NCBI RefSeq assembly: GCF_056712565.1
Contig: NZ_JBWXXM010000004.1
DNA from: a plasmid
Reading direction: 5' to 3' (one strand)
DNA length: 64,000 bases
The notes under the pieces: model-generated
Seen by the model: the letters and a program-made list of their open reading frames with translations, nothing else
What the model was told of the DNA's origin: nothing
Database searches by the model: none
Shown here: in pieces, positions 33,727-64,000 of the stretch
Layout of the letters: each line of letters starts with the position of its first letter
Numbering within the stretch: the first letter of the stretch is position 1
Made by a program: the position numbers and the translations under genes

Positions 33727-33732
33727 ATTTAT

Positions 33733-34107: not shown

Positions 34108-34739
34108 CCAGAATCACTGAAGAGCGCATATCAGAGATTATTTCCCGTATCGAAATGTATGGTCACGGTGCTGGATATACGGCAGATGAAGTATTGGAAA
34201 TAGCCCAGCAGATGCTGGCCTTGAGACAAAAAGAGCAACATGAAAGTAATACGTGTAGATTGAATTTTGAGCATTGGCTGGAACAGCAACGCGGAAAAAT
34301 CGATGTGGACTGTGGTTGTGTGTCCACTGAAACATTCATGCACTGGCTGCGGGTAGCTTACGAGGCTGGCAACTATCCGGATATTCCGGATAGTTCGGTG
34401 CCAGCGCCAGGAAAGGGCGTCACCGGTGAACGTATCCGCATTAAGCCGCATGTTTATCGCGAACTGGTTAACCGTCTCCACGATACAGCGATCAAGTGTG
34501 CTGGCACCCAGCAATTACGAGAAAGAATTAGCCGTGTTTTGGGCGACGTTATTACACCAGATCATCATAAACAAGCCGAGAAAAGTGACCTGGAAAGGTG
34601 TCACCTTGAGGCGGCATTAAACATTAAGCCGGGGCATACGCTTGGCATTATTGATGCACTATTGGTTCATAAGATGGCCAGGGCTTTATTGCCGCTGGTG
34701 GCTGAAAAGCATGAGGTGGACCATGCCAACGAAAGCTGA
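34089..34739 (+). CDS. hypothetical protein
   Basis: 216-aa ORF. Confidence 0.45.
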   Translation: MAQKEMTRITEERISEIISRIEMYGHGAGYTADEVLEIAQQMLALRQKEQHESNTCRLNFEHWLEQQRGKIDVDCGCVSTETFMHWLRVAYEAGNYPDIPDSSVPAPGKGVTGERIRIKPHVYRELVNRLHDTAIKCAGTQQLRERISRVLGDVITPDHHKQAEKSDLERCHLEAALNIKPGHTLGIIDALLVHKMARALLPLVAEKHEVDHANES

Positions 34740-35006
34740 ATTACAGGTGCGCGTAGATGAGCTGAAAAAGAGAACGCGAGCCTCAAAAAAATGCTGTCGC
34801 GGGCGGAAAGGGAATTATCAGGCAAATTATTGCCAGAAGAACTGCCACCAGCAGATATACTAGATCGAGTGTCCCAGTGGATGAAGTCTTTTGGTTTACC
34901 GTGGGAGGCTTTTTGGTGCTACGACCATCGCAGATGGTGTGATGAACTTGATAGCAATTTTCCCTACTTTGCGGAAGGGAACACCTGCCCTCAATGCAGG
35001 GGATAG
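34729..35006 (+). pseudogene. small coiled-coil / Cys-containing protein split by frameshift at an A-run
   Basis: Frame 1 MPTKAELQVRVDELKK.. and frame 2 ..ENASLKKMLSRAERELSGK..CPQCRG join into one about 93-aa protein if one extra A is present at 34771-34775. Confidence 0.3.
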
Positions 35007-35341
35007 CATTTGACGAAATCGATCACCCTATCCTGAACTTCAGAAAGAAGGTCTTTTTCACGCGCCAGGACGTCAGGATATTGACGTTCTGGCCTTACCA
35101 GATGCCGGAGCTTCCCATTAAGCAGAATGGCCTCAGAAAACACTTTTACGCTGTGCTTTATCCCCTCTGTTTCACTTTTCAGCGTCAAAATAAAGCGCAA
35201 TTGCTTATTAGCCTGATTCGGATTCAATACACGAATTTGCAGTTCGTCTATGCTGTTTCGCAATGGGATTGATGCCACCACACTGGTGCAGTCTCTGATT
35301 GTCTGAATTGAACGGCTAACATTGAGAACGTTATTGTGCAT
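34991..35341 (-). CDS. hypothetical protein on opposite strand
   Basis: 116-aa ORF with balanced composition, convergent with upstream plus-strand genes; no strong RBS. Confidence 0.3.
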   Translation of the reverse strand: MHNNVLNVSRSIQTIRDCTSVVASIPLRNSIDELQIRVLNPNQANKQLRFILTLKSETEGIKHSVKVFSEAILLNGKLRHLVRPERQYPDVLAREKDLLSEVQDRVIDFVKCYPLH

Positions 35342-35373
35342 GTGCCTGATCCACTAACTCCTGGAGGTTTCTT

Positions 35374-35625
35374 GTGTCAGATCGAAATATAGCAGCTAAA
35401 AGCCAGGAAGAGCGAGACAAGGTGAACGTAGACCTTGCCGCCAGCGGCGTTGCTTACAAAGAACGGCTGAATATACCTGTGATTGCAGAGCAGGTGGCCC
35501 GTGAGCAACCGGAAAACCTGCGCGCCTATTTCATGGAACGGCTACGGCACTACCGGCAGTTAAGCCTCCAGTTGCCAAAAGGGAGCGATCCGGTGTATCA
35601 GAACGAGGATGCACCAAAAAAATAA
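35374..35625 (+). CDS. hot: DNA polymerase III theta-subunit homolog (HolE-like)
   Basis: 83 aa from GTG with GGAGG RBS; [43 protein letters not shown] matches HolE. Confidence 0.8.
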
Positions 35626-35712
35626 CGGCAAGATGGGGGAGAAATGTGATTAGCCCCCAGCGTGGCGCGCCTACAAACCCCGCTTTCACAAACTATGCCT
35701 TTTCAATGTATA

Positions 35713-45602: not shown

Positions 45603-45791
45603 TAAATATATTATTTTTAATCTGAAATAATTGACAACTGACAAGTGACTTCAGTCAGAATCATCACATGCCCGGTACGGATGGATCCCTTTTCAAATAT
45701 TCCATGGACGGCACAGTCTGAGTACCGGGCGCTACCTTCAGTTGTATTGCTAAGCCGCCGCTGGTGGCTTTTCTTTTTTGTAGGGGGCGCT

Positions 45792-46433
45792 ATGGATAAG
45801 AAAATATGCGTTGTTTCGATGAGCGTCGGCAAACCGGCGTCAATGACTGCTGCATGGATCAACAATGAGCTAATAATGGCTGAGCGGACCAGCTACCCTG
45901 AACGCCGCCGCGATATGGAACTCCAGCTGCTGCGCGAATTGCGAGAAAAAGAGGAAAAGGGTTTTATCGTGCTGGTGGAAGAGGAAAACAGCTTTATTAC
46001 TGGTCGAGTTGGCCAGCGTGTAAGGTTGCGCGATCCCTTCATGAACGGCAGGCCGGTACTAATTGAGGCAATGCAGATTTATAAGGAGCTGGAACGCCAG
46101 AAAGCAATCAAGTTACCGCGCAAGGAATCCGGCAAATACATTCTCCACCAAAGCATCTTCGATTCCGAACACGATAAAAAAGGCGATGAGTTTTTCAACA
46201 TCAACTGGAGCGAAATAACGACAGAGCATGTTCTGACGTTGTTATGCTGCTTCGCAACAGAATACAACAACGTGGTAAGCGCAGACTACATCAGGGCAAT
46301 GGCTGGAGAAGTTGAGGCCCGCCAAGAACCATCGTTACTAAGTCCACTGATTAACATAATTCTGGGCACCCAGATACTGGAACAAAAAAAAGTGCCGAAA
46401 GGGGTATTAACAGGCAAGCATAATTATTTTTAA
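45792..46433 (+). CDS. mat: Mat-like protein (particle maturation)
   Basis: 213 aa from ATG 45792 (G-rich RBS); position after ref as in P1. Confidence 0.55.
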   Translation: MDKKICVVSMSVGKPASMTAAWINNELIMAERTSYPERRRDMELQLLRELREKEEKGFIVLVEEENSFITGRVGQRVRLRDPFMNGRPVLIEAMQIYKELERQKAIKLPRKESGKYILHQSIFDSEHDKKGDEFFNINWSEITTEHVLTLLCCFATEYNNVVSADYIRAMAGEVEARQEPSLLSPLINIILGTQILEQKKVPKGVLTGKHNYF

Positions 46434-46526
46434 CAATTACATACAGTAATTTTGTGGTTACATTCTCCATTGATTTTCTAACCGCTTTATCATTAGATGT
46501 AACAGCATGTAAATCATTTAAAATGG

Positions 46527-47663
46527 ATGAAAGCAATGGGGAATGAAGTTTATCAAAGTCAAAAATGCAAGTTGAAATATTCAAAATCTCAAATTGATAG
46601 GGCTGCTCAATTGATAAGGCACGGGTGTAGTGACGAAGAAAGGCAGCAATCTATTGAAATGATACAAAATTTCCGTGAGCTGCATCTTTATCCATTAATG
46701 CTCATGAAAAATCATTTAGCAAGAGCAGCTGCTAAGGTTGACAAGGACAAAAAGATTCTCGTTGCAAGAAGACTTAAGCGACTTTCTACCATAATAGATA
46801 AACTAGAGCGTCCTAGTCTTGATGGAGGCAGAACTAGCAATGCAATTAAATTAACACGGATGCAGGACGTTGGCGGATGTAGGGCCATTGTCAGAAACTT
46901 AGACCAGTTGATACAGCTAAAGGAACGTCTTTTAAAAAGCAAATCTGTTCATAGGATTGTTAAAGAGTATGATTATCTTACTCCCAAAGACAGCGGCTAT
47001 AGTGGAATCCACCTTGCATACAGTTGCTTCGATCAGAAAGAGGATCAATATCCGTGGCGAAAAACAAAGATTGAGATACAGTTAAGAACTCAATTGCAGC
47101 ATGCTTGGGCTACCAGCCTTGAAATAATTGATACCCTTGAAGGTATCAAGCTGAAAACTTCAAGTGAAGGGCATCCAGAATGGAGACGATTTTTCTATCT
47201 AGCCGGATGTCTTGTAGCGCACGACGAAAAAGCCTGCACTCTTGATGAGCTAGTTGTATCTCAGTATGAAGGCGAGCTTAAAGAGCTGGAACGGACTTTA
47301 TCTGTACGGAGGAAACTAAGCACATACACCATCGCCTTAAATTTAACTTCTGACGCGAATTTGATTAAGAAGTTGCCAAAAAATCATAAGGGGCATTACT
47401 TAGTAACAATGAGAAATGCAGAAAACAAGCCCAATACAAAAAACAAAAAAATGTTCCTAGTGTCTGTTCGCGCATTTAAAACAAAAGAAGCAGATGAAGC
47501 CCTTGAGGCCTTAAATAAAGACGATTCTAATCCTAATGTATTGATATCTGTTCTCGTTGCTACAGATAACATTAAGTCACTAAAAAAAGCCTACCCCAAC
47601 TATTTTGGCTCAACAAACCAGTTTACAAAATTCTTAGATAAGCATCTTCGTAACGAAGGATAG
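46527..47663 (+). CDS. RelA/SpoT-domain nucleotidyltransferase protein, candidate fused toxin-antitoxin (CapRel-like toxSAS)
   Basis: 378 aa, AT-rich codon usage; RelA/SpoT synthetase motifs RLKRLSTIIDKL, DVGGCRAIV, GYSGIHLAY, EIQLRTQLQHAW; about 130-aa C-terminal extension; occupies the res/mod position. Confidence 0.7.
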   Translation: MKAMGNEVYQSQKCKLKYSKSQIDRAAQLIRHGCSDEERQQSIEMIQNFRELHLYPLMLMKNHLARAAAKVDKDKKILVARRLKRLSTIIDKLERPSLDGGRTSNAIKLTRMQDVGGCRAIVRNLDQLIQLKERLLKSKSVHRIVKEYDYLTPKDSGYSGIHLAYSCFDQKEDQYPWRKTKIEIQLRTQLQHAWATSLEIIDTLEGIKLKTSSEGHPEWRRFFYLAGCLVAHDEKACTLDELVVSQYEGELKELERTLSVRRKLSTYTIALNLTSDANLIKKLPKNHKGHYLVTMRNAENKPNTKNKKMFLVSVRAFKTKEADEALEALNKDDSNPNVLISVLVATDNIKSLKKAYPNYFGSTNQFTKFLDKHLRNEG

Positions 47664-47669
47664 TTGCTT

Positions 47670-47697
47670 AATTTTGCCCGGTAATTCCGGGCAAAAT
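47670..47697. other. perfect 28-bp palindrome between convergent genes
   Basis: AATTTTGCCCGG-TAAT-TCCGGGCAAAATT. Confidence 0.5.
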
Positions 47698-47699
47698 TG

Positions 47700-47948
47700 T
47701 CAATCTGCATTCAGGAGCAATGCGTTATCTATGATGATCTGCTCCCATTCTTCGAATGCCCGATCGCGGACGCCCTGGGGAACACTGTTAGTTTTGAAAT
47801 CGACCACCGTCCGCCATTTCCCGTCCGGGCGGTACATGCGCAGAGCTTTACTTCCCCCTTCCCTGCGCACCTCAACGTTATGCTTATCAGCAAACTCTTG
47901 TAATGCTCGTAGCGTCCCATGCTTTACTGTGTAGTATCGCTTTTTCAA
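47700..47948 (-). CDS. lxc: Lxc/Bof-like C1 co-repressor
   Basis: 82-aa ORF directly downstream of ulx-like ORF, matching recalled Bof/Lxc size and position. Confidence 0.55.
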   Translation of the reverse strand: MKKRYYTVKHGTLRALQEFADKHNVEVRREGGSKALRMYRPDGKWRTVVDFKTNSVPQGVRDRAFEEWEQIIIDNALLLNAD

Positions 47949-48385
47949 GTTTTCTCTCCAGCCTGTGCCAAGGCTTCAACTTCCAAATCGTAAGACTCAA
48001 ACTCATAGTCCTGGTCGTCAACTTCTTCAGGCACTGGCAGTAAATGCCAGGCTGAGTATATCTGACCATTATCAAAACGCTCCTGGCTGTAGAGCGTCGC
48101 GGCTATGAGTGTTAGCGCCGGGCGGTCATAACGGTAAATTTTGCGAACGTCACGGTCAACGAGACGACCGAAATTACCATAACCGCGCTCCAGTAATAAT
48201 TTTTTAATTTCCGGCCAGTATGGACCATAGCTGCGGTACAGGCGGGGATTTTTCAGTAATCGCCCGCGTAGCCCTGACAGGAAGAAATCAACGTATTCGT
48301 CTTCTGTCTTTCCTAACAACGCTGTACGGAGTACCGCCTCAAGATATGTTTTATTCGGTTTTATTGTATCAGATAGTGTGGCCAT
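47945..48385 (-). CDS. ulx: Ulx-like protein (upstream of lxc)
   Basis: 146-aa ORF overlapping lxc start by 4 nt. Confidence 0.5.
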   Translation of the reverse strand: MATLSDTIKPNKTYLEAVLRTALLGKTEDEYVDFFLSGLRGRLLKNPRLYRSYGPYWPEIKKLLLERGYGNFGRLVDRDVRKIYRYDRPALTLIAATLYSQERFDNGQIYSAWHLLPVPEEVDDQDYEFESYDLEVEALAQAGEKT

Positions 48386-48418: not shown

Positions 48419-51400
48419 TTATGCGTATTGTTGGATGACGGCCAGAACGTCCGCCACGTTGTGTTTTGTCTCGATAATCCACCAGTTACCCGGGAAATCG
48501 CTGTTCTTCGCCTTCGCTGGCAGCCAGCGAGCGCCGAATTTCGCCTTGATTGCGTCTTTCGCACGGAAAAGAACGCCTTTCATGCCTGAGGCTTCCTGAA
48601 GCCCAAATACCTCGCCAGCGGCGAATTTTGGTGCGTACATCATCTTCAGGTCGGCGGTGGATACGCGATAATTCAGACCAAGAGACTGAGCTATGCTGGT
48701 GGCATCACCCTGTGTTGATGATAACTCTTCTTGTTTCTCGTTTCTGGCGGCAATCTCTTCCTCCGTGATGTTGCCAAGGGCTAGGTTTATCCGATCAGCG
48801 TCGGCCTGTTTCTCTTCATCGGTGCGCCCGGCAAGAACCGTGTTAATTCTCTGCAATATCTCCACATGATTCTTGCGCATGCTGAGCAATTCCGGCGTAA
48901 CCTCGTTAAGATCCACCAGCCCAAGGATGGCAAGGTCGGAAAACATTGATACCAGGTTGTAGGTCATGCGATAGCTGAGTTGACCATAGGCTGATGGCAA
49001 CTTCACAGCATCCATTTGATAGGCATCCATAAATTTAGAGCCGTCGTTTACGACATCCGCTATTGCAGGTGTGATTTTCCCTGTGGTGGCGGCCTCCCTG
49101 ATTGCTGTTACCCACGATTGAGTCAGCGCGGCGACTGCATGATTCAGATTGGCTTCCCGTTCTGCTACGATGCGCGCGCTTGCTGCGTCCATTGCCTGCT
49201 TGATCTCGGCTTTATTGCTGTAAATGCCAATGGTGCCAAACTGTGCTGTGGTGATCTCATAATCTGACCCCCGGAACTCATTGGTACCGAAAATGGCATT
49301 GGTGACTTCAAGTTCAGAATCCCCGTTACGAGTAGCCCCCTGGCTTGTTTTTTCCGGCATTCTGGCGATCGCATCCGCTATTTTCTCCTGAATTGCTTCA
49401 GGGGATAGCGTATCTCCGTATGACGCGATTACATCGCCATAATTGGAGCCAAACAATTCAACCAGGAATGTTTCTGCCGAACGGATCTGGCGGTTATTCC
49501 CTTCCGACATCATACCAAGCACCCATTTTGCAATTGACGACTTCAGCGCGTCGTCACGGCGATCCGGGTAAACCGCATGCTTCAGTGGGTCCGTATAGGT
49601 ACCAACAAAATCAATGCTATAGCCTGACTCTGTAGTCTGAACGCCGTACGAGTCAGTTATTTTGATCATGCCGCGCTGCTGGAAACGGTAGAAATCGTCA
49701 CAGGAAATGATGTCGTTAATCCCGGCGATGGAGACGCCACCACTGATTTTCTGCATAACAGCATCTTCATCGGGAGTTACATCCACCTGTTTATCCAGCG
49801 TCTTCACATCCCAGTTACCCGATTTGGTGCCTTTGAAGGTAAAGATGATCTCCACGTCTGCGCGCTGGCTGTCGAAGTCCAGCGACTTAATGCGAACGAT
49901 ATCACCGGCACAATCGTAGTATTGGCCTACACGCCATGAGCGATCGCCGATAACAAGGAACTCACTCGCATGGTTAACCAGGTCAGGATCAACATCCAGA
50001 ATGCCTTTATTTATTGCATCCTCCACCAGCGGGCGCAGGCGTTTGATATCCGTCGCGGCCTTCTGAGTACGGTTCAATAATTTCTCATAGCGGGAGATGG
50101 CTTGAGAGATATTAGCCTTGCGCTGAATGGCGTTTTTCAACGACGCGCGATACTGTGCTAACAACATACGGTCTGTGTGATGGACGCTCCCCCAGCGGGC
50201 CTTCCAGTCTGCGTTATCAGCTGCTTTGGCCATTACCGCCTGTTTGAATTTGGCGACGTCGGCGGTGGTCTTTTCAAGTTCCGCTTTGCTTCGCTCTAAT
50301 TCAGCGGTAAGTACCTCCACATCCTCGCCAGCTGCGTGCTGCGCCTTGATGTAGTTCTGAAGGTCGATAGTAGCCTGTTCTTTCTGGCGAGCGCGTTGCG
50401 CGGCTTTCGCCTTATCCATTTGAACCTGCATCATTGCCAGACGTTCGCCATCATCCTTAGCGGTATACATCTGCATTTCGATCATATCGTTGGCGTCGGC
50501 GTTCTCCATTTCTGACTTATCTGAACGGAGGATATCGGAGATCCAGCCTGCTTTACGCTTCAGCGTCTTCAGTCGGTATTCATCGAAAGAACCCTTGCCG
50601 CAGTAGTAGTGAACGCGAACGCTTGCACGGTTGGAGCCAACTCGGGCACCGCGACCGTTACGCTGTGCGATACTGGCTGGTGTCCATGGCAACGTCAGAT
50701 GATGGATGTCAGTCGTTCCTCGATGCAGGTTGATACCCACCTCTGCCTTTTTGTTGCAGATGATGATCGGAGTCCGGCCCTCCTGGAAGTCGGCAGCAAT
50801 CTTTTCCAGCCCACCCAGCGACATTTCATTTTGCTGCGCGATATAGGCGTCATACAGAGCCATTTGCTCGTTGTATTTCGCTATCTGTGCATCTGTTGGT
50901 TCATCCGGTAGCTCTTTCGGCGGTTTAACCGCTTTCAGTTTCTTACCGGTTTTACCTGCCTCGGCAACCGTCTGAGCATTCAGGATCCCCACCTTTGAAG
51001 GTTCAAGGTTAAGAGCATTGCAGATAATGCGCTTGAGCTTCTGGTGTTGCGTTTTTTCATCGGTGAAGATGATTTGCTTACCTTCCGGGAAAAACTCCTT
51101 CAGCGTGGCAATCAGCTTCGCGTATTTGGGCGTAACGGGGTGAGTTACGGTCTGTTCGTCAATGCCAAACTTGGCCAGGCGCTTATTCACTTCCTGCTCG
51201 AACGCTTCCGGAACCTGCAACTGAATAAACTCGCCCTTATCTATCAGGGAGTATTGCGATTGCTGCGTGATTGAATCATCACTGTCGTCGTCTTCGCTGG
51301 TGGCTTGTTTAGGCAAACTGTCCGCCAGCTGCTGCACCGCATCGGCGTACTCCGGCAGGAAACGATAGGTGATCCGGCGATAGTACAGGTCCATGTCAGT

Positions 51401-54400
51401 ACATACGCGGTCCATATCCCTGATTATTGAGAAGATCGGACGGGCTTTCTCGTGCTCAATCACGCCGTCTTCATTGACCGAGGTCGTTACGCCATTGTTG
51501 GCTTTGGCCGCCGCTTCCGCCTGCTGACGCAATTCTTCATACGCCGCCAGTTGTTCTTCAGTAAGTGGTGCATCCTGCTGGTGTTCGTCCAGCTCCGGGA
51601 TCTCCACGGTATCCTTAACGTCTTCCGCCGTTTTAAGCGTTACCCAGCGATGGAATATACCGCGCAGCGCATCAAGGTTTTCAAAGCCCACCAGCGCCAT
51701 TTTTTCTTCAACTTCACCGCTAATTTTCTGTACCGTTTCCAGCCTGGTCTTGCCGAAGAATTTAACGAAGTCATCAGGACCGTAGATCCCCATGTTCTGC
51801 CAGTATTCCTTCGGCAGAACATGAGAAAGCATGTTGTATGCATCGATCGGGGTGTTAACGACTGGCGTTGCAGTCAGGAGAACCGGCCCGCGCCCGCCAT
51901 TCTTTTTCATCAGGTACGCGTTTTTAATTGCCATATCTCGCGCCGATTGCGCCACCGCGCTGGTGGGCAGATAGGCCAGTTGTGACGCTTCGCGACCATT
52001 TTTATAGCTATTGCGGTAGTTGTGACCTTCGTCGGCGATCACACTATCGAAGCCCATATCCTCAAAGTACGGATACTTCTCTGCTTTTTCGGTGCCGGTA
52101 TCTGAATACTCCGACAATACCCGGCGACGCGCGGCCTCTTTGCGGTGGGAGTCGGAGTCCATTGCGCTGGCTACGCGCCCGGCTGCAACGAAGTCATAAA
52201 GCATATCCTGTGCATGCTCATCTACGGTGTCATCACGTAGCGGAATGCGGGCGTATTGTTCTTTGGTAAACACGACTGCACGGTAATTTGAGTGCGGGAT
52301 CGCGTTCATCCGCGCCGTGATAGTGGCTTCATCTGCCAGTTTTAGGGCATCGCGCATAACTGGAGTGCCATCAGTACCAAGAACAGGTTTACCGTTCTCA
52401 TCGAGCACCGGCACCTGGCGAATCTGATCGCCATCCATCAGCACATCAAGACCGACGAACAGGTAGTTACTGAATGCCTCTTCACTCAGGAATTCTTTTG
52501 CTTCGTAATACCAGTTTTCCAGCACTGATTTAGGCACTACATACGCAGTACGGGTGGAGCGACCGTTCTCATAGTTGAACGCCTCAAGCGCCAGCGCGGT
52601 CGTAGTTTTACCCAGCCCGGTGCCGAAGCCCAGGATGCCGCGCCCATCTTCGGACAGTCGGCGCACTTCGCTATTCTGGTAATCAAATGGCTGGCGCTTA
52701 CCGCTTAATCCCTTCAACCCAAGCGGATCGCCAGAGTGTTCATACGGGATATTGCTATTGAACACATCGTTGTATTTGGCAACCAGTTCATCGTAGCGAT
52801 CGTGCGTCTTGATCCACTTATTGAACTGGTCCTCAAGCAGTGCCATCTGCTCGCGGTAGCCGTTCGCCGTCGCGCTATCTTTGCCACCGATACGCGCACC
52901 ATTGAGATACTTTTCCAGCTGTGCCGGGAACCCGGTCGCGTTTTCACCTGATTTACGGTCCCACTCGTAGCGGATCTCGCCTGTTTCTTTATCCTTGCGC
53001 TGGACGACACCGTATCGGTGCCCGACGAACAGACCATCACCACCGTGATAGGTGTCAGAAACCATTTCGTCGCCTTCCAGCTGCACTGACTGCACATAGC
53101 GAAGATCCGGATAGCCGTTTTCCTGCAAAAATTCCAGAATGACGGAACGGTCGAACCAACGGCTATTGAGCTTAAAGCGGATATTCTCTGCTGGCGTCTT
53201 GATGCGCTTCTCTTCGATCGCTGCCAGCTGATTAAGGACGTTGTTCTTTACTGGACCGTCGGGGAGTGTGGCAAGGAATTCCTGTTTTGGTGCCACTATC
53301 TCGTTAATGTCGCCGCTGGTGGCGCGGGCGAACGGAACAATCCCGCCATACGGTGAAACCGCAATGCCAGGGGTGCTGGCCAATAAATTAAGCAACTCGT
53401 CATCACTGGCTGGCAGTTCGCCGGTAAACGCAAGGCGGAAATCATCGAGCTGGATTGGATCGCGAGTGAGATCACTGTAGAGATAACGCAGGGTGTCCTG
53501 ATAGCTGGTGGAGTCATAACTGGCGCTGGAATCATGCGTAACCAGTTTTCCTGTCAGCTCGTCAGAAATAGTGCCATCCAGCTTAATTGCACCACGGAAA
53601 GCAAACCAGGCGCGCGCACCGCTCCCCGATAATTTCGCTATCGGACCGCGACCGGGGTTACCAAAACGGTCAATCTCTGCCTGCAAACGGGATACCAGAG
53701 AAAGGCGCTGCTGTTCGATTTGTTCAGCACTATGCCCGGCGGCCTTCATGTCCTGATATTCAATTAACATCCGGCCAATCATCGCCCCGCGATACAAGCG
53801 TTCACGGTATTTTTCAGGCTGGCTGTTAATCCAGTCCACCAGCTGCACCATATCGTCGCTGATTGATGTGGTGTACTTATCGCGGACATTTGCCATCTGG
53901 GTAAATGTCATGCCGAGACGGCCTTCTGTTGTAGTCAGGTTACGCTGAAGAGCCTCCCAGCTATCCGCGCCATAACTGGCAGCATCGATCTTAAGTTCCT
54001 TCCCTGCATCAGCTTCAATCCAGCGACCACCAGCATATTTTTGCCATACGCCATTAATCAGGCGCATTTCCCCTTCACCAACAACGTCTGCGGTCGGTGA
54101 CGGTTCAGCCATATCGAGCAAAGACCAGTCGATACGGCTTTCGAAACGATGAATCAGCTTCGCTTTAAGAGCCTGGTTATCAATCTGACCGTCGGCACGA
54201 ACCTCAATACGCCCCTGGAAGCCCTTTTCCTGGGTGCCATGAACAAACCGGCGGCCATCCTTTTCAAACCACTTGCCAGAAATAAACGTTGACCAAAGCA
54301 CATTTGCCGATTCGAGAGTGCTTTCATCCACCAGGGGGATTTTCTCAGCCATCTCTGCCGGATGTTTGCGCATCAGCACCACATCTACGACCGTACTGGT

Positions 54401-55186
54401 CCCGTTAGCGTCAAAAGTACCGGTAGGCAAGCGGTGAGCGCCAAGAAATTCAGCTTTACGGGATAGGCGCAGGCGTAACCGCTTCATGTTTGAACCTGAA
54501 ACAATGGACGGCGGCACAATCACGCACATGAATCCGCCTGGCTTTATCTTGTCCAGCATGCGGAGCATGAAGTAAGAACCCATGTCCGTTTCTTCTGCGT
54601 AAGGCTTATCGATGTTGCGTGTGTTATCACGACCACCGAACGGAACGTTACCCACAACATGGTCGAATGAATCGTTAGGCGTGCTTACAGCCAGCTGTTC
54701 GAACGGGGAAATCTGTACGCTGTCTTCCGGGTGTAACAGCTGGTTTATACGACCGGAAACACTGCTGATCTCAGTCGCAGTCATCACCGTACCAACCGGT
54801 TTTGTCTCATTAAAAACGCCGGTGCCCGCCGATGGTTCCAGAGTGTTACCTACGTCCGCGCCGTAGAGCTTCATGATCTCCCAGACACCTTCAGCGATCG
54901 GCTTTGGTGTGTAATATTCGGAGACGGACCCGCCAATGCCGCCTTCACCGGTGTACCCAGCCAGGATCTGGCGCTGTTCATCTGTCAGTGTCGCGCCGTC
55001 CACCAGCGAATTAAGCAAATCTATCGCCTTCTGATTCGCCTCCCGGCGCAGTCGGTCATAGCTTTTGCCTTCCACCTTTTCCACGCCGTATTTAATCGGC
55101 GCTCGGTGAGATGTTATTGCCCTAATGTATTTCAATATTTCGCTGACACTTGAACAGCGAAACACCCCCATAGATAGCTTGTTCAT
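48419..55186 (-). CDS. darB: DarB antirestriction protein (N-terminal N6-adenine MTase domain plus DEAH-type helicase)
   Basis: 2255-aa ORF; MTase motifs EPSAGTG and NVPFGG; helicase motifs GTGLGKT, ADEGHNYRN. Confidence 0.85.
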   Translation of the reverse strand: MNKLSMGVFRCSSVSEILKYIRAITSHRAPIKYGVEKVEGKSYDRLRREANQKAIDLLNSLVDGATLTDEQRQILAGYTGEGGIGGSVSEYYTPKPIAEGVWEIMKLYGADVGNTLEPSAGTGVFNETKPVGTVMTATEISSVSGRINQLLHPEDSVQISPFEQLAVSTPNDSFDHVVGNVPFGGRDNTRNIDKPYAEETDMGSYFMLRMLDKIKPGGFMCVIVPPSIVSGSNMKRLRLRLSRKAEFLGAHRLPTGTFDANGTSTVVDVVLMRKHPAEMAEKIPLVDESTLESANVLWSTFISGKWFEKDGRRFVHGTQEKGFQGRIEVRADGQIDNQALKAKLIHRFESRIDWSLLDMAEPSPTADVVGEGEMRLINGVWQKYAGGRWIEADAGKELKIDAASYGADSWEALQRNLTTTEGRLGMTFTQMANVRDKYTTSISDDMVQLVDWINSQPEKYRERLYRGAMIGRMLIEYQDMKAAGHSAEQIEQQRLSLVSRLQAEIDRFGNPGRGPIAKLSGSGARAWFAFRGAIKLDGTISDELTGKLVTHDSSASYDSTSYQDTLRYLYSDLTRDPIQLDDFRLAFTGELPASDDELLNLLASTPGIAVSPYGGIVPFARATSGDINEIVAPKQEFLATLPDGPVKNNVLNQLAAIEEKRIKTPAENIRFKLNSRWFDRSVILEFLQENGYPDLRYVQSVQLEGDEMVSDTYHGGDGLFVGHRYGVVQRKDKETGEIRYEWDRKSGENATGFPAQLEKYLNGARIGGKDSATANGYREQMALLEDQFNKWIKTHDRYDELVAKYNDVFNSNIPYEHSGDPLGLKGLSGKRQPFDYQNSEVRRLSEDGRGILGFGTGLGKTTTALALEAFNYENGRSTRTAYVVPKSVLENWYYEAKEFLSEEAFSNYLFVGLDVLMDGDQIRQVPVLDENGKPVLGTDGTPVMRDALKLADEATITARMNAIPHSNYRAVVFTKEQYARIPLRDDTVDEHAQDMLYDFVAAGRVASAMDSDSHRKEAARRRVLSEYSDTGTEKAEKYPYFEDMGFDSVIADEGHNYRNSYKNGREASQLAYLPTSAVAQSARDMAIKNAYLMKKNGGRGPVLLTATPVVNTPIDAYNMLSHVLPKEYWQNMGIYGPDDFVKFFGKTRLETVQKISGEVEEKMALVGFENLDALRGIFHRWVTLKTAEDVKDTVEIPELDEHQQDAPLTEEQLAAYEELRQQAEAAAKANNGVTTSVNEDGVIEHEKARPIFSIIRDMDRVCTDMDLYYRRITYRFLPEYADAVQQLADSLPKQATSEDDDSDDSITQQSQYSLIDKGEFIQLQVPEAFEQEVNKRLAKFGIDEQTVTHPVTPKYAKLIATLKEFFPEGKQIIFTDEKTQHQKLKRIICNALNLEPSKVGILNAQTVAEAGKTGKKLKAVKPPKELPDEPTDAQIAKYNEQMALYDAYIAQQNEMSLGGLEKIAADFQEGRTPIIICNKKAEVGINLHRGTTDIHHLTLPWTPASIAQRNGRGARVGSNRASVRVHYYCGKGSFDEYRLKTLKRKAGWISDILRSDKSEMENADANDMIEMQMYTAKDDGERLAMMQVQMDKAKAAQRARQKEQATIDLQNYIKAQHAAGEDVEVLTAELERSKAELEKTTADVAKFKQAVMAKAADNADWKARWGSVHHTDRMLLAQYRASLKNAIQRKANISQAISRYEKLLNRTQKAATDIKRLRPLVEDAINKGILDVDPDLVNHASEFLVIGDRSWRVGQYYDCAGDIVRIKSLDFDSQRADVEIIFTFKGTKSGNWDVKTLDKQVDVTPDEDAVMQKISGGVSIAGINDIISCDDFYRFQQRGMIKITDSYGVQTTESGYSIDFVGTYTDPLKHAVYPDRRDDALKSSIAKWVLGMMSEGNNRQIRSAETFLVELFGSNYGDVIASYGDTLSPEAIQEKIADAIARMPEKTSQGATRNGDSELEVTNAIFGTNEFRGSDYEITTAQFGTIGIYSNKAEIKQAMDAASARIVAEREANLNHAVAALTQSWVTAIREAATTGKITPAIADVVNDGSKFMDAYQMDAVKLPSAYGQLSYRMTYNLVSMFSDLAILGLVDLNEVTPELLSMRKNHVEILQRINTVLAGRTDEEKQADADRINLALGNITEEEIAARNEKQEELSSTQGDATSIAQSLGLNYRVSTADLKMMYAPKFAAGEVFGLQEASGMKGVLFRAKDAIKAKFGARWLPAKAKNSDFPGNWWIIETKHNVADVLAVIQQYA

Positions 55187-55195
55187 TGGTAATCC

Positions 55196-55213
55196 TTAAC
55201 AAGTGACTAGTGT
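55196..55213. promoter_or_regulatory. candidate late-promoter box in darB/prt divergent region
   Basis: CTTAACAAGTGACTAGTG contains the AGTCACTTGTT core also seen at 219-233, 20838-20850, 58929-58942. Confidence 0.35.
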
Positions 55214-55252
55214 TAAATTCCGTTCAAACACGATGTGAATTATTCTAATTAA

Positions 55253-57983
<2,731 letters not shown>

Positions 57984-57991
57984 CCATCAAA

Positions 57992-58020
57992 AATAACCCC
58001 GGCGGCTGCCGGGGTTCTCG
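57992..58020. terminator. bidirectional terminator between pro and lyz block
   Basis: AAAAATAACCCCGGCGGCTGCCGGGGTTCTCGTT; strong when read on minus strand. Confidence 0.6.
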
Positions 58021-58027
58021 TTAACTA

Positions 58028-58282
58028 TTATCGCCTTCGTCTGCGTGCCATATATTTTCGCACCGCGCGACGTGGGCAATCTGAAGCGGTTTCTTTCTGC
58101 TGCATCAATCTTGCAGCCATGCTCAAAAATGTCAGGCACAGCCGAAGCCCGGCATATAATAGCGGTTCCAGTGGCCACGTCTCATTGATCACATATACCG
58201 CCATGAAAATCGAGTCGAAAACTATCGCCGCCAGCGATAACTTCATTGTCGAAAGTCGGCGGAGCTGCCGGAGTTTATTCAT
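58028..58282 (-). CDS. small membrane protein downstream of lyz (holin/pinholin candidate)
   Basis: 84-aa ORF (or 72 aa from 58246) with two hydrophobic segments; overlaps the lyz stop. Confidence 0.3.
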   Translation of the reverse strand: MNKLRQLRRLSTMKLSLAAIVFDSIFMAVYVINETWPLEPLLYAGLRLCLTFLSMAARLMQQKETASDCPRRAVRKYMARRRRR

Positions 58283-58832
58283 TGACCAGTCCCGTCAGGC
58301 AAAGCTGACGTTCTTTTTCACGGCGAATCTTTAAGCCTCGCAGTGGCACGCCGTTACTGTTCACGAAATCAGGGAGATGGTTACACATATTCACCCATTC
58401 CCCTTTCTGCGCCCACTTGTGGATGGACGTTTCTACTCGCATGCCTCGCGCTTTGCTGTAGTAGGTCCGTAAACTATTGCATCCCATATTGAATGCCGCG
58501 CTTGTCATTGCACTGAAGGCATTATCGGGCATGTCTTTGCCCCGGAAGTGCTGATTAATACAGCGTTCAGCGATCAGGATATTCTTTTCCCAATCAGCGG
58601 CGATTTGCTGGTCGGTTTTTCGCACGCCTGGCGTTACCCCGTGTGTATTACCAATCCCGTCAGTCCATACACCCGCCGGGCACATGTATGGGTCACGTCG
58701 GCAACCTTCAGCGTTTCCGATAAGCTCAAGCCCCGCCTGGTTGGTTCGCACATTGCCATTACCCATCACGATGGTAATCATCACCGCGATAGCGCAAATT
58801 GCACCGCCTCCTGCGGCTGTTTTTCCCTTCAT
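58275..58832 (-). CDS. lyz: SAR endolysin (lysozyme with signal-arrest-release domain)
   Basis: 185 aa from MKGKTAAGGGAICAIAVMITIVMG; Gly/Ala-rich SAR segment then T4-lysozyme-like catalytic region. Confidence 0.9.
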   Translation of the reverse strand: MKGKTAAGGGAICAIAVMITIVMGNGNVRTNQAGLELIGNAEGCRRDPYMCPAGVWTDGIGNTHGVTPGVRKTDQQIAADWEKNILIAERCINQHFRGKDMPDNAFSAMTSAAFNMGCNSLRTYYSKARGMRVETSIHKWAQKGEWVNMCNHLPDFVNSNGVPLRGLKIRREKERQLCLTGLVNE

Positions 58833-58963
58833 AAAGACCTCATAAGCGAATTTTTTACGCTCCAGGACAACACCCATTCACAGCCAATACCGACTGACTC
58901 GATCCCTTTAGAAGGCACAGGATAATGCAAATCACTTGTTAGCTACGTTTCAAAGATATACAT

Positions 58964-58980
58964 TATTGCTCTAATTAATT
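58964..58980 (+). promoter_or_regulatory. C1-operator-like site upstream of ssb
   Basis: ATTGCTCTAATTAATTT. Confidence 0.55.
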
Positions 58981-59000
58981 TATTTTATTAGGTAAGATAA

Positions 59001-59489
59001 GTGGCACAACGCGGTGTAAACAAAGTCATCCTGATTGGTACCCTGGGGCAAGACCCGGAGATCAGGTATATACCAAATGGCGGAGCGGTCGGAAGACTCA
59101 GCATCGCAACGAATGAATCATGGCGCGACAAGCAAACGGGCCAACAGAAAGAGCAAACAGAATGGCATAAAGTCGTTTTGTTCGGAAAACTTGCTGAAAT
59201 TGCGAGTGAGTATTTACGAAAAGGTTCTCAGGTCTACATCGAAGGGAAACTTAAAACCCGTAAGTGGACAGATGACGCCGGTGTAGAACGTTACACGACG
59301 GAAATTATCGTCAGCCAGGGCGGCACCATGCAAATGATCGGCGCTCGCCGTGACGATTCACAGTCCTCAAATGGCTGGGGGCAATCAAACCAACCTCAAA
59401 ACCACCAGCAATACAGTGGTGGCGGTAAACCTCAGAGCAACGCCAATAACGAACCTCCAATGGACTTTGACGACGATATTCCGTTTTGA
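59001..59489 (+). CDS. ssb: single-stranded DNA-binding protein
   Basis: 162 aa; OB-fold N-terminus, Gly/Gln-rich tail, C-terminal DFDDDIPF. Confidence 0.95.
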
Positions 59490-59686
59490 ATGTGTAAAAA
59501 ACGACTGAAAGAAAAGCGGTGGTCCAGACGCCAACAAAAGCACGAACTCGCTAAAAAACGCCAAAGTTGGCAATGGCACGCGTTTTTAACGAACAGAACA
59601 CCACGAGATATTGCTTTCGCTGGTGGGAAAACATTCCTAACCCACCTGAAGACGCAATACATCAGTTTTTAAGCAGAGAAAAGACT

Positions 59687-60475
59687 ATGACAGCACAAAA
59701 AACTAAAACCATTCAATACCGCCTACGTAATGGCCAGAGTGTCGAAGTGACCATCAATAATGATGGAGTACCTGGCGAAAAAGTTTCTATCTCTGATCTG
59801 GCTATCGAAAAAACCATCATGTGCCACCTTGGCTTTACTGAAGAAGTGAGCAAAAAGCATGGTGTAGCAATCTGGAGCGCAATGGATACTGGTATGCGCA
59901 AGTTCATTACTGCTCGTACCCCAGGGATGACCATGATGGACCTCATGCAGATTGCGCCGCTGTTTGAATGTGAGCCTTTAGATGTATTCAGCAATCCAGC
60001 TATCTGCCAGCAGTTATATGGTGAGATGAAACTCGCGGTTACCCCCATTGTGCTGCATGAAGGATCGCTTGCTGGCGTGTGGAAAGTAGAGCGTATTTCA
60101 AGCTACATGCCTTTCCATGTCAACGGCGTAATCACTGGTGAAAATCAACCTGTTTCCGTTATAAAGTCAGACCTCAAGCGCGCAATTCTTGAAGCAAGTT
60201 GTCGAGTTGTCGGGCTGGGCAAACAGTCTTATGTTTCCTTCCCGGCTGGCCCTGAAGGCCCGGCAGAAATTCTGATTATGGATGCCGATCTGCTCTGGCA
60301 AATACAGTTTCTGATTGGCAAAAGCATCATCCGCGCTGAAGAACTCGATCAGTACATTACCTGCACGATGACGGATGAAGTCAAAAGTGTGGCTATAGCC
60401 AATGCCCGGAACCTATGTCGTGCTGCATTAACAGAACTGCAAGAAAACACCACGGAAGAAGTGGAAAGCGATTAA
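59687..60475 (+). CDS. hypothetical protein
   Basis: ORF-track frame 59567-60475; likely start MTAQKTK at 59687; followed by terminator. Confidence 0.45.
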   Translation: MTAQKTKTIQYRLRNGQSVEVTINNDGVPGEKVSISDLAIEKTIMCHLGFTEEVSKKHGVAIWSAMDTGMRKFITARTPGMTMMDLMQIAPLFECEPLDVFSNPAICQQLYGEMKLAVTPIVLHEGSLAGVWKVERISSYMPFHVNGVITGENQPVSVIKSDLKRAILEASCRVVGLGKQSYVSFPAGPEGPAEILIMDADLLWQIQFLIGKSIIRAEELDQYITCTMTDEVKSVAIANARNLCRAALTELQENTTEEVESD

Positions 60476-60477
60476 AA

Positions 60478-60503
60478 AAAATCCCGCCGATTGGCGGGAT
60501 TTC
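60478..60503. terminator. bidirectional intrinsic terminator
   Basis: AAAAAAAATCCCGCCGATTGGCGGGATTTCTTC. Confidence 0.6.
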
Positions 60504-60504
60504 T

Positions 60505-60813
60505 TCAATATACGATCTGGTCTACATGATCACCAAAATCATCGTCGTCGTCCTCATCGCCACCATCTACTGCTGGCCAATCAACAAACCAGCCAGCGTA
60601 AAGATGCAGCGTTCGGAGAACATCACTTGCGGGAGCATCAAGGGTGTTAACGAATCCCATATAGCTATTGGGATTTGCTCCAGCTATGGCTTCAGCGATC
60701 ATGTCCTCGGTAATGTCACCGGAGATAATGCTTAAACGCCCGGAAACTTCTTCATTATCATCAAATTCGATAATGGCATCTCCGCCTAATGGCGCTGCGA
60801 TTTTAATCTGCAT
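60505..60813 (-). CDS. acidic hypothetical protein, last gene of minus-strand operon
   Basis: 102-aa ORF ending in Asp/Glu-rich tail; start overlaps ddrB stop. Confidence 0.45.
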   Translation of the reverse strand: MQIKIAAPLGGDAIIEFDDNEEVSGRLSIISGDITEDMIAEAIAGANPNSYMGFVNTLDAPASDVLRTLHLYAGWFVDWPAVDGGDEDDDDDFGDHVDQIVY

Positions 60814-63790
60814 TATTTAGCTCCTTTGCCACACCTAATAACAGTTCCAGCAATCCGTCACCATTCATCAGTGATGCGGCAGCGGCCTCTTTGTCATGAT
60901 ACAACTGAAGAGCCATAGAGAATACTTCCGTTGCTGACGTTTTGGAAATAGTCGGTGATTTCTGCCGAATTTTCCCGGAATTACTCACTGAGGCTGGCGG
61001 GTATACCTTCGCCATATAAATATTACTCAATCGAGATCTGAAGCACCATTCAGGCTTGCCACGCCCACCGATATTAACGAAAGATGGCTTATCCCCTTCA
61101 ACATTGGCCTTCAGGAATGACCGGGCTTTCTCTAACAAACCAGGGTTACTGTACTCAAGATGATGACCCAGCTCGTGCCACAGTGCACTTGCATTTTCAT
61201 CGTTCAAATTGACAGCAACAACACCATTAAGATTTGCATATGCCCTTCCCTGGTGGTGAACCACCTTTGTTAAGGTCGAAATTTTACCGCCGGTCAGGCG
61301 ATAAATATCAGCAAGTTCCTTGCGCAGGTCTATCCCACCATTCTGTCCAGCGCGGGCTTCTTCCACTTCTTCCGTGATAAAAGAGTCGGCCCACTCAAGA
61401 GCTTTTTCTTCAGATACGGATGAGTTGGCGATCGCACTGTTCATGGCAGATAACACTTTCTCGTGGACCGAACCCATACTTCGCTGATTCATTTGCCAGC
61501 GTGTCTGCGGGTTATATGAGAATCGCTTAAGTAGTTGGTCAAGCTGCTCAAGTTCTTCTTCACTGACATACTTTTTAGCCTCACCAATAATGCCAGGGAG
61601 AATATTGCCGTTAGGATTAAACGCTCGCGAAAGGAAGAGTTTCAGCGCCCCCATGCCCTCCGATGCTTCAATATCACCAATAACCCGGTTAACAATGGCC
61701 GCACTCTTCGGATTAGCATCCGCCAACGCTCTGGCTACGATTTGCAGGGACGATACGACCTCACGCTGCATATCCGTCCTGATCTCATCAATAAACTCTG
61801 GCGTTATGCCGTGCTCTTTAAGGATATCCCGGCCTTCCGCCGTTACCCCATCGATATCACCGACATGTTTATTAACACGACTTTGCAATGCCTTAAATGC
61901 CTTCAGAATTCCACGGGCATCATCCGCTTTACTAACGGCCTTCCTGAATGCTGGCAAGAAGTCAGAGTTAACCTCATTTTGTTGATCGGCCCACTGAATG
62001 GAGGCTTCTTTCATCTCGTCCAGAGTCAGATCACCCAACGCGGTATGGTCTGTGAATATGAGCGACAACCTCTGAACCATTTCTGCCAATGGTGATGCCG
62101 AATGCGCCGCGCTAAGGAATGCTTTCACCCTGGTTGGGCGAATGGAAAACCAGTCAATAGCTGGTGGCATATCTCCGTTTTTTATCGCCTGCGCTATCTC
62201 ATCAAAGCCGTCGCGCCCAAGGGAGGATGCGTGATTTAACAATCCGCGAAGTAACGAATTGCTGATACCGAATAATCGGCACCATTTATTCACGTCGGCA
62301 ACAGGCATTCGAACAAAATGCGCAAGCACTTGTACAAGCTGTTCATCCTGGGGATCTGTACGGGAAAGCAGCCTGATCAGATGAATAATGTCTTTGATGC
62401 CGGATGCCCGATGTAATAGCAAGCTGGTATATGGAGCAACACCGTTGTAACTACCGCCGGAAACGGACTCGAAAAGACCGCCGGATATCCCTTGCATGCC
62501 TTCGTTTTCCAGTTCCTGAGACACCTGGCGAAGGATATCCTGTAACGACACATCACCACCGCCAAACATATCCCCCAGCGCCTGGCCCTGGTGCTGTAAC
62601 TCATCATTGATACGTTGAGCCATCAATTTAAAGGCGGTGGCCATACGCTTCGCGCTACGGTTATTCGCGACGATGAACAACGCGAGAGCTTTCACTTCCG
62701 GGGCTGTTTCGCTGAACATATCCCCCTGAGCAATAACATCGGTAATATGTTGGCCTGACTCCTTCGATTGCCTTACCAGGTCTACCGCATCTTTCAATGC
62801 CGCCAGCGCCTTTTTATCGAGACTATCCGCTGTCTCAATACCATCAACAATAGTTGTCACAGCCTGCTTGTGCGCTTCTCCTGATAAAGCCTGCATCTGG
62901 ACAAAATCATTGGCTGCCGCATTAAGCGCCGTCAGAACATTACGCATATCCGGATCAGGTTCTTCTGCAACCATCCTTACCAGGCGCGCATCCTTATATG
63001 CCTTGGCAAAGATCGCGTTTTGTATACGGTCAACAAGTTGCCGCGTTGGTCGCCCATCTTCCGTTACAAGGCCAGCCGCCTGTGTGGCACCAACTTGCGT
63101 CATAAATCCGCGAATAAACGCGTCATTACTGCGGCTAAGCAGATCTCCGCTTTCTGACGGGTTAAAAAGCGCCATCATCGCCGGTGTTATGCTGTCGGCA
63201 TCAACAAAAGCCTTTTCACTGGCTGCCATTTCCTGAAGATCAGAAATATTTGAGTCCTTGGCAAACTGAACGCGGTCAACCTTGGTTAACCGGCGGCGCA
63301 CCAGTACCGGAGCCGTCATTGATTCAACCTTTTCAGGTCGTATGCCGAATTCGGTCGCATGATCAATCAGGTACTCACGATACCGATCCGCATTGCCGTC
63401 CTGATAGGCTTTGATGATCCCCATGGTCCGTCCATTACCTGACTCAACGGCATTGTCCTCACCAATTATCGGCGCACCATGGCTGGATAAACCGGAATCA
63501 GTAAGCTGAGCAGGCCGCAAATCTTTGGATATCTGGTTAACCTGAAGAAGGCTGGATGCGCGGGTCCGGTCGCGCGGCTGAAGTTCCTGGGGATAGTCAG
63601 GATTAATTTTCCCATCCAGAGTATTGGATACCAAAAGAGCTGAGGCATCGACGATATCAAACGCTGTTTTTACCTCGTCTCCCTTCGCTGTCACCACATA
63701 CGAAACCCGCCCATAACCGGGCAGGTTCTTTAGCAGCTCGATCAGCGTTTCTATGCTGGTGGCCATTACCACCTGATCGCTTAAGCTCAT
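60803..63790 (-). CDS. ddrB: DdrB-like large virion protein (HExxH metallopeptidase-like motif)
   Basis: 995-aa ORF; HELGHHLEY motif; position between ssb side and darA-operon genes. Confidence 0.55.
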   Translation of the reverse strand: MSLSDQVVMATSIETLIELLKNLPGYGRVSYVVTAKGDEVKTAFDIVDASALLVSNTLDGKINPDYPQELQPRDRTRASSLLQVNQISKDLRPAQLTDSGLSSHGAPIIGEDNAVESGNGRTMGIIKAYQDGNADRYREYLIDHATEFGIRPEKVESMTAPVLVRRRLTKVDRVQFAKDSNISDLQEMAASEKAFVDADSITPAMMALFNPSESGDLLSRSNDAFIRGFMTQVGATQAAGLVTEDGRPTRQLVDRIQNAIFAKAYKDARLVRMVAEEPDPDMRNVLTALNAAANDFVQMQALSGEAHKQAVTTIVDGIETADSLDKKALAALKDAVDLVRQSKESGQHITDVIAQGDMFSETAPEVKALALFIVANNRSAKRMATAFKLMAQRINDELQHQGQALGDMFGGGDVSLQDILRQVSQELENEGMQGISGGLFESVSGGSYNGVAPYTSLLLHRASGIKDIIHLIRLLSRTDPQDEQLVQVLAHFVRMPVADVNKWCRLFGISNSLLRGLLNHASSLGRDGFDEIAQAIKNGDMPPAIDWFSIRPTRVKAFLSAAHSASPLAEMVQRLSLIFTDHTALGDLTLDEMKEASIQWADQQNEVNSDFLPAFRKAVSKADDARGILKAFKALQSRVNKHVGDIDGVTAEGRDILKEHGITPEFIDEIRTDMQREVVSSLQIVARALADANPKSAAIVNRVIGDIEASEGMGALKLFLSRAFNPNGNILPGIIGEAKKYVSEEELEQLDQLLKRFSYNPQTRWQMNQRSMGSVHEKVLSAMNSAIANSSVSEEKALEWADSFITEEVEEARAGQNGGIDLRKELADIYRLTGGKISTLTKVVHHQGRAYANLNGVVAVNLNDENASALWHELGHHLEYSNPGLLEKARSFLKANVEGDKPSFVNIGGRGKPEWCFRSRLSNIYMAKVYPPASVSNSGKIRQKSPTISKTSATEVFSMALQLYHDKEAAAASLMNGDGLLELLLGVAKELNNAD

Positions 63791-63802: not shown

Positions 63803-64000
63803 TTATGCTGCCTCTTTAATGTTGGCGGCTATCCATGCCGCCGTGTGCTGTTTAACCTGGTCCAGGTCGATGTATGTGCCAACATATTGACTCAAATCCT
63901 GCAAGGTACCGATAAATGCATCGGTGCTCTGATCGACGAATTTATCAGCCAGGAAATCAGCAACCAGTTTTGGCACACCATCATGTACCGAAGGTTGTTT
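63803..64000 (-). CDS. partial CDS, C-terminal 65 codons; gene continues past window end (ddrA-like position)
   Basis: Open minus-strand frame from window end to TAA at 63803-63805, 13 nt upstream of ddrB start. Confidence 0.4.
   Translation of the reverse strand, partial: KQPSVHDGVPKLVADFLADKFVDQSTDAFIGTLQDLSQYVGTYIDLDQVKQHTAAWIAANIKEAA

Follow-up and report, generated by a model that had tools for sequence, protein, structure and literature searches.

Dar anti-restriction genes and a CapRel homologue in the res/mod slot of a P1-type phage-plasmid

Here we report on a 64,000-nucleotide (64 kb) stretch of plasmid DNA (contig NZ_JBWXXM010000004.1 of assembly GCF_056712565.1), hereafter the window, which we hold, with a probability of about 90%, to be part of a P1-type (Punavirus) phage-plasmid bearing two independent conflict modules. 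One is an offence, the Dar anti-restriction genes; the other is a defence, a CapRel homologue standing in the slot that holds the restriction-modification (R-M) genes res and mod in phage P1. Positions 46000-64000 are 97-98% identical in nucleotide sequence to phages P1, P7, SJ46 and many relatives, and the window, mapped locally onto the complete genome of P1, is collinear with it apart from a few replaced blocks; about one third of the element (~30-35 kb) lies outside the window. An initial annotation of positions 48419-63790 had claimed that DarB and a DdrB-like protein were retained while res/mod was absent and exchanged for a different immunity gene. The observation is real and was correctly interpreted, yet the arrangement is common and previously described.

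Venturini et al. (2019) recognised five variable hot-spots among P1-like plasmids, the slot being RD-1, and found res-mod (RD-1) and IS1 (RD-2) missing from all three elements that they studied, one of which, pTZ20_1P, has a “putative phosphokinase” in the slot (PMC6906374). Lai and Cooper (2024) placed a gene named relAP1 between mat and lxc in the P1-like phage of E. coli M114 (PMC10865808). A 2025 preprint on about 1,600 P1/D6 elements described Dar-Ddr as universal, whereas the defence cargo varied (type III R-M, dGTPase, PrrC, CapRel), with CapRel commoner in E. coli and type III R-M commoner in Salmonella (bioRxiv 10.1101/2025.09.12.675607). Because the exchange of res/mod at this site had been reported in 2019 as RD-1, in 2024 as relAP1 and again in the preprint, the finding is already known; the comparison across relatives that the initial annotation suggested is likewise largely published (in the same three sources), and the finding as stated adds little and is of modest value. 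The value of the present analysis lies in an independent confirmation of the DdrB metallopeptidase fold, in showing that counter-defence and defence modules vary independently and that P1's own R-M system is a minority occupant of the slot, and in recognising in relAP1 a CapRel allele whose sensor has diverged, which offers a testable explanation of a published resistance-gene cost.

The Dar genes and the metallopeptidase-motif domain of DdrB

Dar (DarB, Ulx, DdrB, DdrA, DarA, Hdf) is a textbook P1 system (Iida 1987, Piya 2017, Gonzales 2022). Within the window, ulx, darB and ddrB are intact and accompanied by 65 codons of ddrA; the window stops 198 nt into ddrA, so that darA and hdf, like most of ddrA, are beyond its end and not visible, while close relatives such as SJ46 carry darA and hdf. 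Gene order, orientation and catalytic motifs are those of P1, with 98.6-98.8% protein identity, and ulx and lxc lie directly downstream of darB. The features of this module, with roles assigned to darB and ddrB by P1 homology, are as follows.

47945..48385 (-): ulx, Dar component for DarB capsid localisation; 98.6% identity to P1 Ulx, PHROG 'Ulx-like anti-restriction' 4.5e-66
48419..55186 (-): darB, virion-packaged anti-restriction protein of 2255 aa with a methyltransferase, an SF2 helicase and an unannotated C-terminal third; 98.8% identity to P1 DarB
50252..52726 (-): SNF2/SF2 helicase core of DarB, aa ~821-1645; PF00176 5.6e-11, PF04851 1.8e-05, PF00271 3.3e-06
54287..54934 (-): N6-adenine methyltransferase domain of DarB, aa ~85-300; PF02384 2.2e-08, PF07669 2e-07
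60803..63790 (-): ddrB, virion protein of 995 aa aiding DarB incorporation; 98.7% identity to P1 DdrB
60866..61408 (-): zincin-like metallopeptidase domain at the DdrB C-terminus, aa ~795-975; HELGHH motif and invariant residues
63290..63685 (-): DdrB-type ParB/Srx-superfamily domain at the DdrB N-terminus, aa 36-167; PF18763 1.6e-39
63803..64000 (-): 3' part of ddrA, C-terminal 65 codons, clipped at the window end; collinear with P1 to the last base, and by translation

Both open reading frames (ORFs) lie exactly where the initial annotation put them (48419..55186, 2255 aa; 60803..63790, 995 aa; both on the minus strand). The interval that it drew around them does hold both, but it also encloses the unrelated P1 genes prt, pro, lydD/E, lyz, ssb, isaA and hxr.

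DarB matches its P1 counterpart without gaps at 2229 of 2255 residues, and the 26 substitutions leave the catalytic motifs untouched. Methyltransferase motifs I (EPSAGTG at aa 117) and IV (NVPF at aa 180) are intact, as are helicase motifs I (GTGLGKT at 855), II (DEGH at 1052) and VI (QRNGRGAR at 1508). Domain annotation had been named beforehand as the check that might overturn the description of DarB as a methyltransferase-helicase; it supports both assignments, with N6_Mtase/Eco57I-type methylase, SNF2-rel_dom/ResIII and Helicase_C all exceeding the Pfam curated cut-offs. The helicase additionally matches DrmD/ZorD-like helicases in PADLOC. The N-terminal 30 residues of DarB, known for their capsid-targeting function (PMC9024508), are identical to those of P1. 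All three complete genes are under purifying selection, with dN/dS values against P1 of 0.10 (darB), 0.09 (ddrB) and 0.12 (ulx).

The P1 virion proteome paper lists Ulx with the entry “Aids DarB localization” and DdrB with “Aids DarB addition to capsid” (PMC9024508). By homology with P1, Hdf, DarA and DdrA would enter the procapsid first, followed by DdrB and Ulx, which would permit the packaging of about 40 copies of DarB by means of its N-terminal 30-residue signal. Injected together with the DNA, the Dar proteins of this element would be expected to protect that DNA in cis from type I restriction (EcoB/EcoK) in the new host.

DdrB differs from P1 DdrB by 13 substitutions, without gaps and with none in the catalytic motifs. 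At 98.7% identity it is the DdrB orthologue, and a reading as a DdrB-like paralogue was dropped; the “DdrB-like” label of the 995-aa protein was thus right about DdrB and wrong about “-like”. Its HELGHH motif (residues 872-877; window 61160..61177, minus strand) occupies the same position in P1, and the residue composition of DdrB would lead one to expect only 0.025 HExxH motifs. A word-indexed homologue search with the DdrB C-terminus gave close relatives only, and an exhaustive HMMER scan, used instead, recovered 370 homologues of residues 701-995. Of the 148 homologues examined, mostly just 25-45% identical to the query, 147 keep HExxH. In a 25-sequence alignment G835, R849, H872, E873, H876, E914, Y925 and E955 are invariant; H872, E873, H876 and two downstream glutamates are so even among homologues only 23-39% identical to DdrB.

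A structural model of the C-terminal domain has a zincin-like fold. A Foldseek search returned no significant match. A search of the C-terminal profile against PDB sequences and Pfam gave only weak matches near the HExxH helix (FtsH, ADAM8, Reprolysin and Zincin_1, E 0.003-0.6), along with one spurious match to a designed repeat. The conservation of the motif, the zincin-like model and the role listed for P1 DdrB bear out its description as a metallopeptidase-motif partner of DarB. Zincin-like metallopeptidase and DdrB-ParB domains were described in polyvalent proteins by Iyer et al. in 2017, with DdrB as the prototype of the DdrB-ParB domain (PMC5512222). DdrB in the window shows no substantive difference from that description; the present analysis independently recovered both the HExxH domain at its C-terminus and the link of that domain to the lethal-factor-like fold.

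The DdrB zincin-type metallopeptidase probably processes DdrB itself and/or other internal head proteins. The HExxH domain might instead be a structural relic, in which case DdrB would lack peptidase activity and serve DarB packaging purely as a scaffold or adaptor. We know of no biochemical demonstration of such activity, no Pfam peptidase family reaches threshold for DdrB, and its sole documented role is to aid DarB incorporation. However, invariance of the metal-motif residues across such distant homologues is unexpected for a relic and the fold resembles that of active zincins, and we therefore regard a loss of peptidase function as improbable. Antisense within ddrB, the ORF at 61590..61985 (+) corresponds to P1's annotated iddB, and its frame of 131 aa is kept open.

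The res/mod slot and its occupant

The slot, its flanks and its content are as follows.

45681..46433 (+): mat, maturation control, left flank of the slot; 95% identity to P1 Mat
46434..47699 (+): cargo cassette of 1266 bp in the RD-1 (res/mod) slot; replaces P1 3470-9751
46536..47663 (+): CapRel homologue (fused toxSAS toxin-antitoxin), 375 aa from Met4 of a 378-aa ORF; identified by RelA_SpoT, PADLOC and similarity to CapRel^SJ46
47700..47948 (-): lxc, modulator of C1 repressor, right flank of the slot; 100% identity to P1 Lxc

In the map against P1, the interval 3470-9751, which contains res and mod::IS5, is exchanged for window 46435-47701, and tblastn with Res (two alleles) and Mod gave no match within the 64 kb window at E<=1e-3, in agreement with the reported absence of res/mod. 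The cassette has a GC content of 38.1% against ~48% in its flanks and contains just one gene, flanked by mat and lxc and unaccompanied by a separate antitoxin gene. Its right boundary falls exactly at the lxc stop codon in all 9 relatives compared. The left boundary is variable; homology of the relatives ends at positions 657-789 of a 789-nt query, within the last ~130 nt of mat, and these ~130 nt co-vary with the cargo. Copies of the cassette that are 100% identical are found in many E. coli plasmids, and in 82 of 5426 complete E. coli genomes, where they reside nearly always on plasmids of ~92-100 kb. A scan for promoters and terminators around the cassette was uninformative (1 promoter-like site, 4.2 expected by chance).

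Among plasmids of PLSDB, the mat/lxc-ulx flanks are common to 703, of which 72 have a CapRel gene in the slot, while P1-type res occurs in only 108. Because P1's res/mod is a minority occupant of this hotspot, the direction of any swap is not inferable from it, and we set aside the reading of res/mod as ancestral and then lost; the claim that the element had “swapped” its restriction system for an immunity gene holds for the occupant but not for the direction. EcoPI, the type III R-M system that fills this mat-lxc slot in P1, P7 and roughly 10% of P1-like plasmids, also defends the lysogen, but it is a two-gene, ~5 kb, DNA-targeting system, whereas the window cassette is a one-gene, 1.1 kb system predicted to act by abortive infection.

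A restriction system retained elsewhere in the element would mean that no real exchange of defence function had occurred. Other P1-like plasmids carry type I R-M in their pmg region (PMC6906374), a ~7.4 kb block foreign to P1 lies at that position in the window, and there is room in the third of the element outside the window. Against this, the block has no R-M genes, its only products being one lone PAPS-reductase-like protein, Ead/Ea22-like proteins and hypotheticals, and the window has no Res or Mod homologue. We consider such a system unlikely, and a specific identification of the block (26923-34357) as type I R-M, comparable to that of pSvP1, was rejected for lack of R-M domains. This region belongs to a second large variable block, at window 26923..35695, that stands in place of P1 pmgT-lxr. 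Its PAPS-reductase-like protein (27413..28291) has weak SspD/DndC/BrxP similarity, and it also encodes two Ead/Ea22-like proteins and several proteins without a family match; 26923..35695 yielded no complete known defence system.

CapRel is a characterised defence. The product of the slot gene is RefSeq WP_000526244.1, the same protein as the published relAP1, and has a RelA_SpoT domain (PF04607, 3e-12); over its full length it matches the PADLOC candidate family PDC-S33 (6.7e-86). PGAP places the start at Met4 (375 aa), which restores the residue numbering of CapRel^SJ46. Against the latter (PDB 7ZTB) the protein is 74% identical over its full length (residues 4-374, E 5e-185), and all 12 of 12 residues important in CapRel^SJ46 experiments are conserved: the catalytic and ATP-binding R79, R116 and Y155 (the ATP-coordinating arginines and the G-loop tyrosine), the autoinhibition interface A77, V338, L339, A341 and A351, the YxxY motif's Y352 and Y355, plus trigger-binding L280 and L307 (residue roles from PMC9712102). 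The C-terminal pseudo-zinc-finger domain (pseudo-ZFD), the antitoxin and sensor, forms part of the same polypeptide, alignment to 7ZTB extending through residue 370. The slot occupant is thus indeed a different immunity gene, as had been proposed.

CapRel^SJ46, from Salmonella phage SJ46 (Zhang et al. 2022), shares with the window gene the single-polypeptide organisation of toxSAS and pseudo-ZFD and the 12 key residues, and phage SJ46 carries its CapRel in the same mat-lxc slot. Divergence between the two peaks in the sensor domain, at 61% identity overall there and 48% at aa 301-325; with these values, and only 74% across the protein, the window allele probably differs from CapRel^SJ46 in phage range and in trigger. 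By homology with that protein, the C-terminal pseudo-zinc-finger domain would keep the N-terminal toxSAS autoinhibited as long as this domain has not bound a protein from a superinfecting phage. Once released, the enzyme would pyrophosphorylate tRNA 3' ends, halt translation and abort the infection.

Lai and Cooper read the relAP1 protein as an unregulated ppGpp synthetase (PMC10865808), and the slot gene could be a small alarmone (ppGpp) synthetase that acts on its own and increases basal ppGpp, rather than a CapRel-type sensor. The protein does have a RelA_SpoT synthetase domain, and the same paper reports no recognised regulatory domain and non-toxic expression. Yet the alignment with CapRel^SJ46 is end to end, including the C-terminal pseudo-ZFD and the autoinhibitory YxxY motif, the match to the PADLOC defence-candidate family is likewise full length, and a non-toxic full-length protein is precisely the CapRel phenotype (PMC9712102), all of which makes an unregulated synthetase very unlikely.

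Slot cargo and darB among P1-like plasmids

The contents of the slot were compared among relatives drawn from PLSDB, with frequencies taken from 60 of the 703 records, sampled at even spacing, and from incomplete PLSDB gene tables. At least 9 alternative cargos occur in this sample.

SIR2: 12/60 records
CapRel (two alleles): 7/60 records
YaaC family: 6/60 records
DUF2971: 5/60 records
PIN: 2/60 records
GNAT: 1/60 records
EAL: 1/60 records
Hypothetical proteins only: about 4/60 records
Empty slot: 2/60 records
Slot flanks too distant to join: 18/60 records

Five of the 18 records with wide flanks were inspected and contain either type III R-M (two alleles, Res 93% identical) or EAL-based cassettes, with insertions of insertion sequences or resistance genes. 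In PADLOC, the SIR2 cargo matches PDC-S25/ThsA, the DUF2971 cargo PDC-S31 and the PIN cargo PDC-S34; others have no match. The YaaC-family gene and a gene for a 169-aa protein weakly like nucleoside 2-deoxyribosyltransferase form a two-gene cassette in about 10% of sampled P1-like plasmids, for example in E. coli plasmid NZ_LR882977.1 (locus L006:1180-2729, no PADLOC match), and we regard them as a candidate uncharacterised defence pair. Other slot cargos without a defence-database match are a GNAT acetyltransferase (L009:1286-1894), an EAL protein with an AraC-type helix-turn-helix (HTH) regulator (L003:6054-8962) and a 132-aa protein of no family (L010:1224-1622). Together with the YaaC pair, they are inexpensive candidates for new defence genes.

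Among the 703 plasmids with any darB match, 441 have a full-length gene; in the remainder it is truncated, often at a recurrent breakpoint. R-M and DarB occur together in P1 and pSA20030575.2. DarB is present and R-M absent in this window and in plasmids with SIR2, YaaC, DUF2971, PIN or GNAT cargo, and R-M is present and DarB absent in pE2855-2 (NZ_AP018798.1), where the equivalent of window 48404-55042 is deleted. Finally, R-M is absent and DarB truncated in two inspected loci (L004, L016). As all four combinations occur, defence cargo and counter-defence genes vary independently. The comparison of dar loci with the contents of the res/mod slot, as originally suggested, thus finds diverse cargo and modules that are not tied to each other. 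Dar counters the type I enzymes of a new host, while EcoPI, a type III system, and CapRel protect the lysogen. Dar is therefore functionally independent of EcoPI, and keeping one without the other is to be expected.

That darB and ddrB are kept here by linkage only, and are decaying as the element now lives mostly as a plasmid, is highly improbable. Truncation of darB in ~37% of those P1-like plasmids that match darB at all, the split of SJ46 darB into two ORFs and the absence of ulx and darB from pE2855-2 could be taken as signs of decay, but in the window both genes are full length with every motif intact and dN/dS against P1 of about 0.1, and full-length darB is retained in the 441 plasmids noted above.

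Several of these relatives deserve mention in their own right. Plasmid pE2855-2 (locus L015, 10366-12382) is the reverse of the window, with type III R-M in the slot, nearly all of ulx and darB lost, and ddrB kept. The recurrent darB truncation, at window ~52387 (position 3969 of the darB query; L004, L016), is found in many P1-like plasmids; it removes the methyltransferase half and leaves a 3.9-kb 'helicase-related protein' gene, followed by phd/yefM-relE and an autotransporter gene, and suggests a clonal lineage of P1-derived non-phage plasmids. In phage SJ46, the source of the CapRel^SJ46 name, darB (5423-12175 of its record) is annotated as two ORFs of 2091 and 4482 nt with a 180-nt gap between them, either a disrupted gene or a sequencing error.

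The cost associated with relAP1, and other differences from P1

relAP1 was found to be both necessary and sufficient for an unexplained fitness cost of 9-16% imposed by blaTEM-116* in E. coli (Lai and Cooper 2024, PMC10865808). The relAP1 gene of the E. coli M114 phage and the RD-1 'putative phosphokinase' of pTZ20_1P are the same gene, between the same flanks, as in the window; pTZ20_1P (MN510447) is 99.4% identical to window 45645-48385, and pTZ20-1P is itself reported to encode relAP1 (PMC10865808). Those papers describe the product as a ppGpp synthetase or a phosphokinase, whereas here it is recognised as a CapRel-type fused toxin-antitoxin. In the searchable literature we found no paper naming both relAP1 and CapRel.

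If relAP1 is a CapRel-type sensor, the cost of blaTEM-116* may reflect its partial triggering. We tentatively propose, as a possibility that we hold to be less probable than its negation, a low-level autoimmunity in which the beta-lactamase partly relieves CapRel autoinhibition, leading to tRNA pyrophosphorylation and slower growth. The effect may come from the enzyme or its precursor, and may be direct or arise via the stress that it causes. The compensatory substitution I179S adjoins the catalytic E-x-Q-L-R-T strand, a position consistent with loss of toxSAS activity. If true, this proposal would provide a non-phage trigger of the CapRel immune sensor, and a mechanistic basis for the incompatibility of a prophage defence gene with a resistance gene.

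The genes between darB and ddrB, which are not part of Dar, and the adjoining junction are listed here.

55262..60475: prt (portal), pro (prohead protease), lydE/lydD, lyz, ssb and isaA-like; 94-100% identity to P1 proteins, and P1 annotation
60476..60506: junction at P1's IS1 and isaB site, the RD-2 of Venturini et al.; window-vs-P1 map, PMC6906374
60505..60813 (-): hxr, Xre-like repressor homologue, overlapping the 3' end of ddrB; 98% identity to P1 Hxr

At the junction, IS1 and isaB (P1 22532-24245) are absent from the window, which has 31 bp there instead. The isaA-like ORF (59567..60475) is called 18 codons shorter than P1 IsaA.

The plasmid replicon is unlike that of P1. The incA/repA/oriR region (P1 61316-62806) is replaced by 2.25 kb at window 2699..4948, which encodes a Rep3-type initiator (3867..4787, minus strand), and MOB-suite types related CapRel-carrying plasmids as 'IncHI1B' and not IncY. 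Small non-collinear stretches are also present at window 11732..13030, relative to the tRNA / plp-upl / tciA region of P1 (~69.6-70.7 kb).

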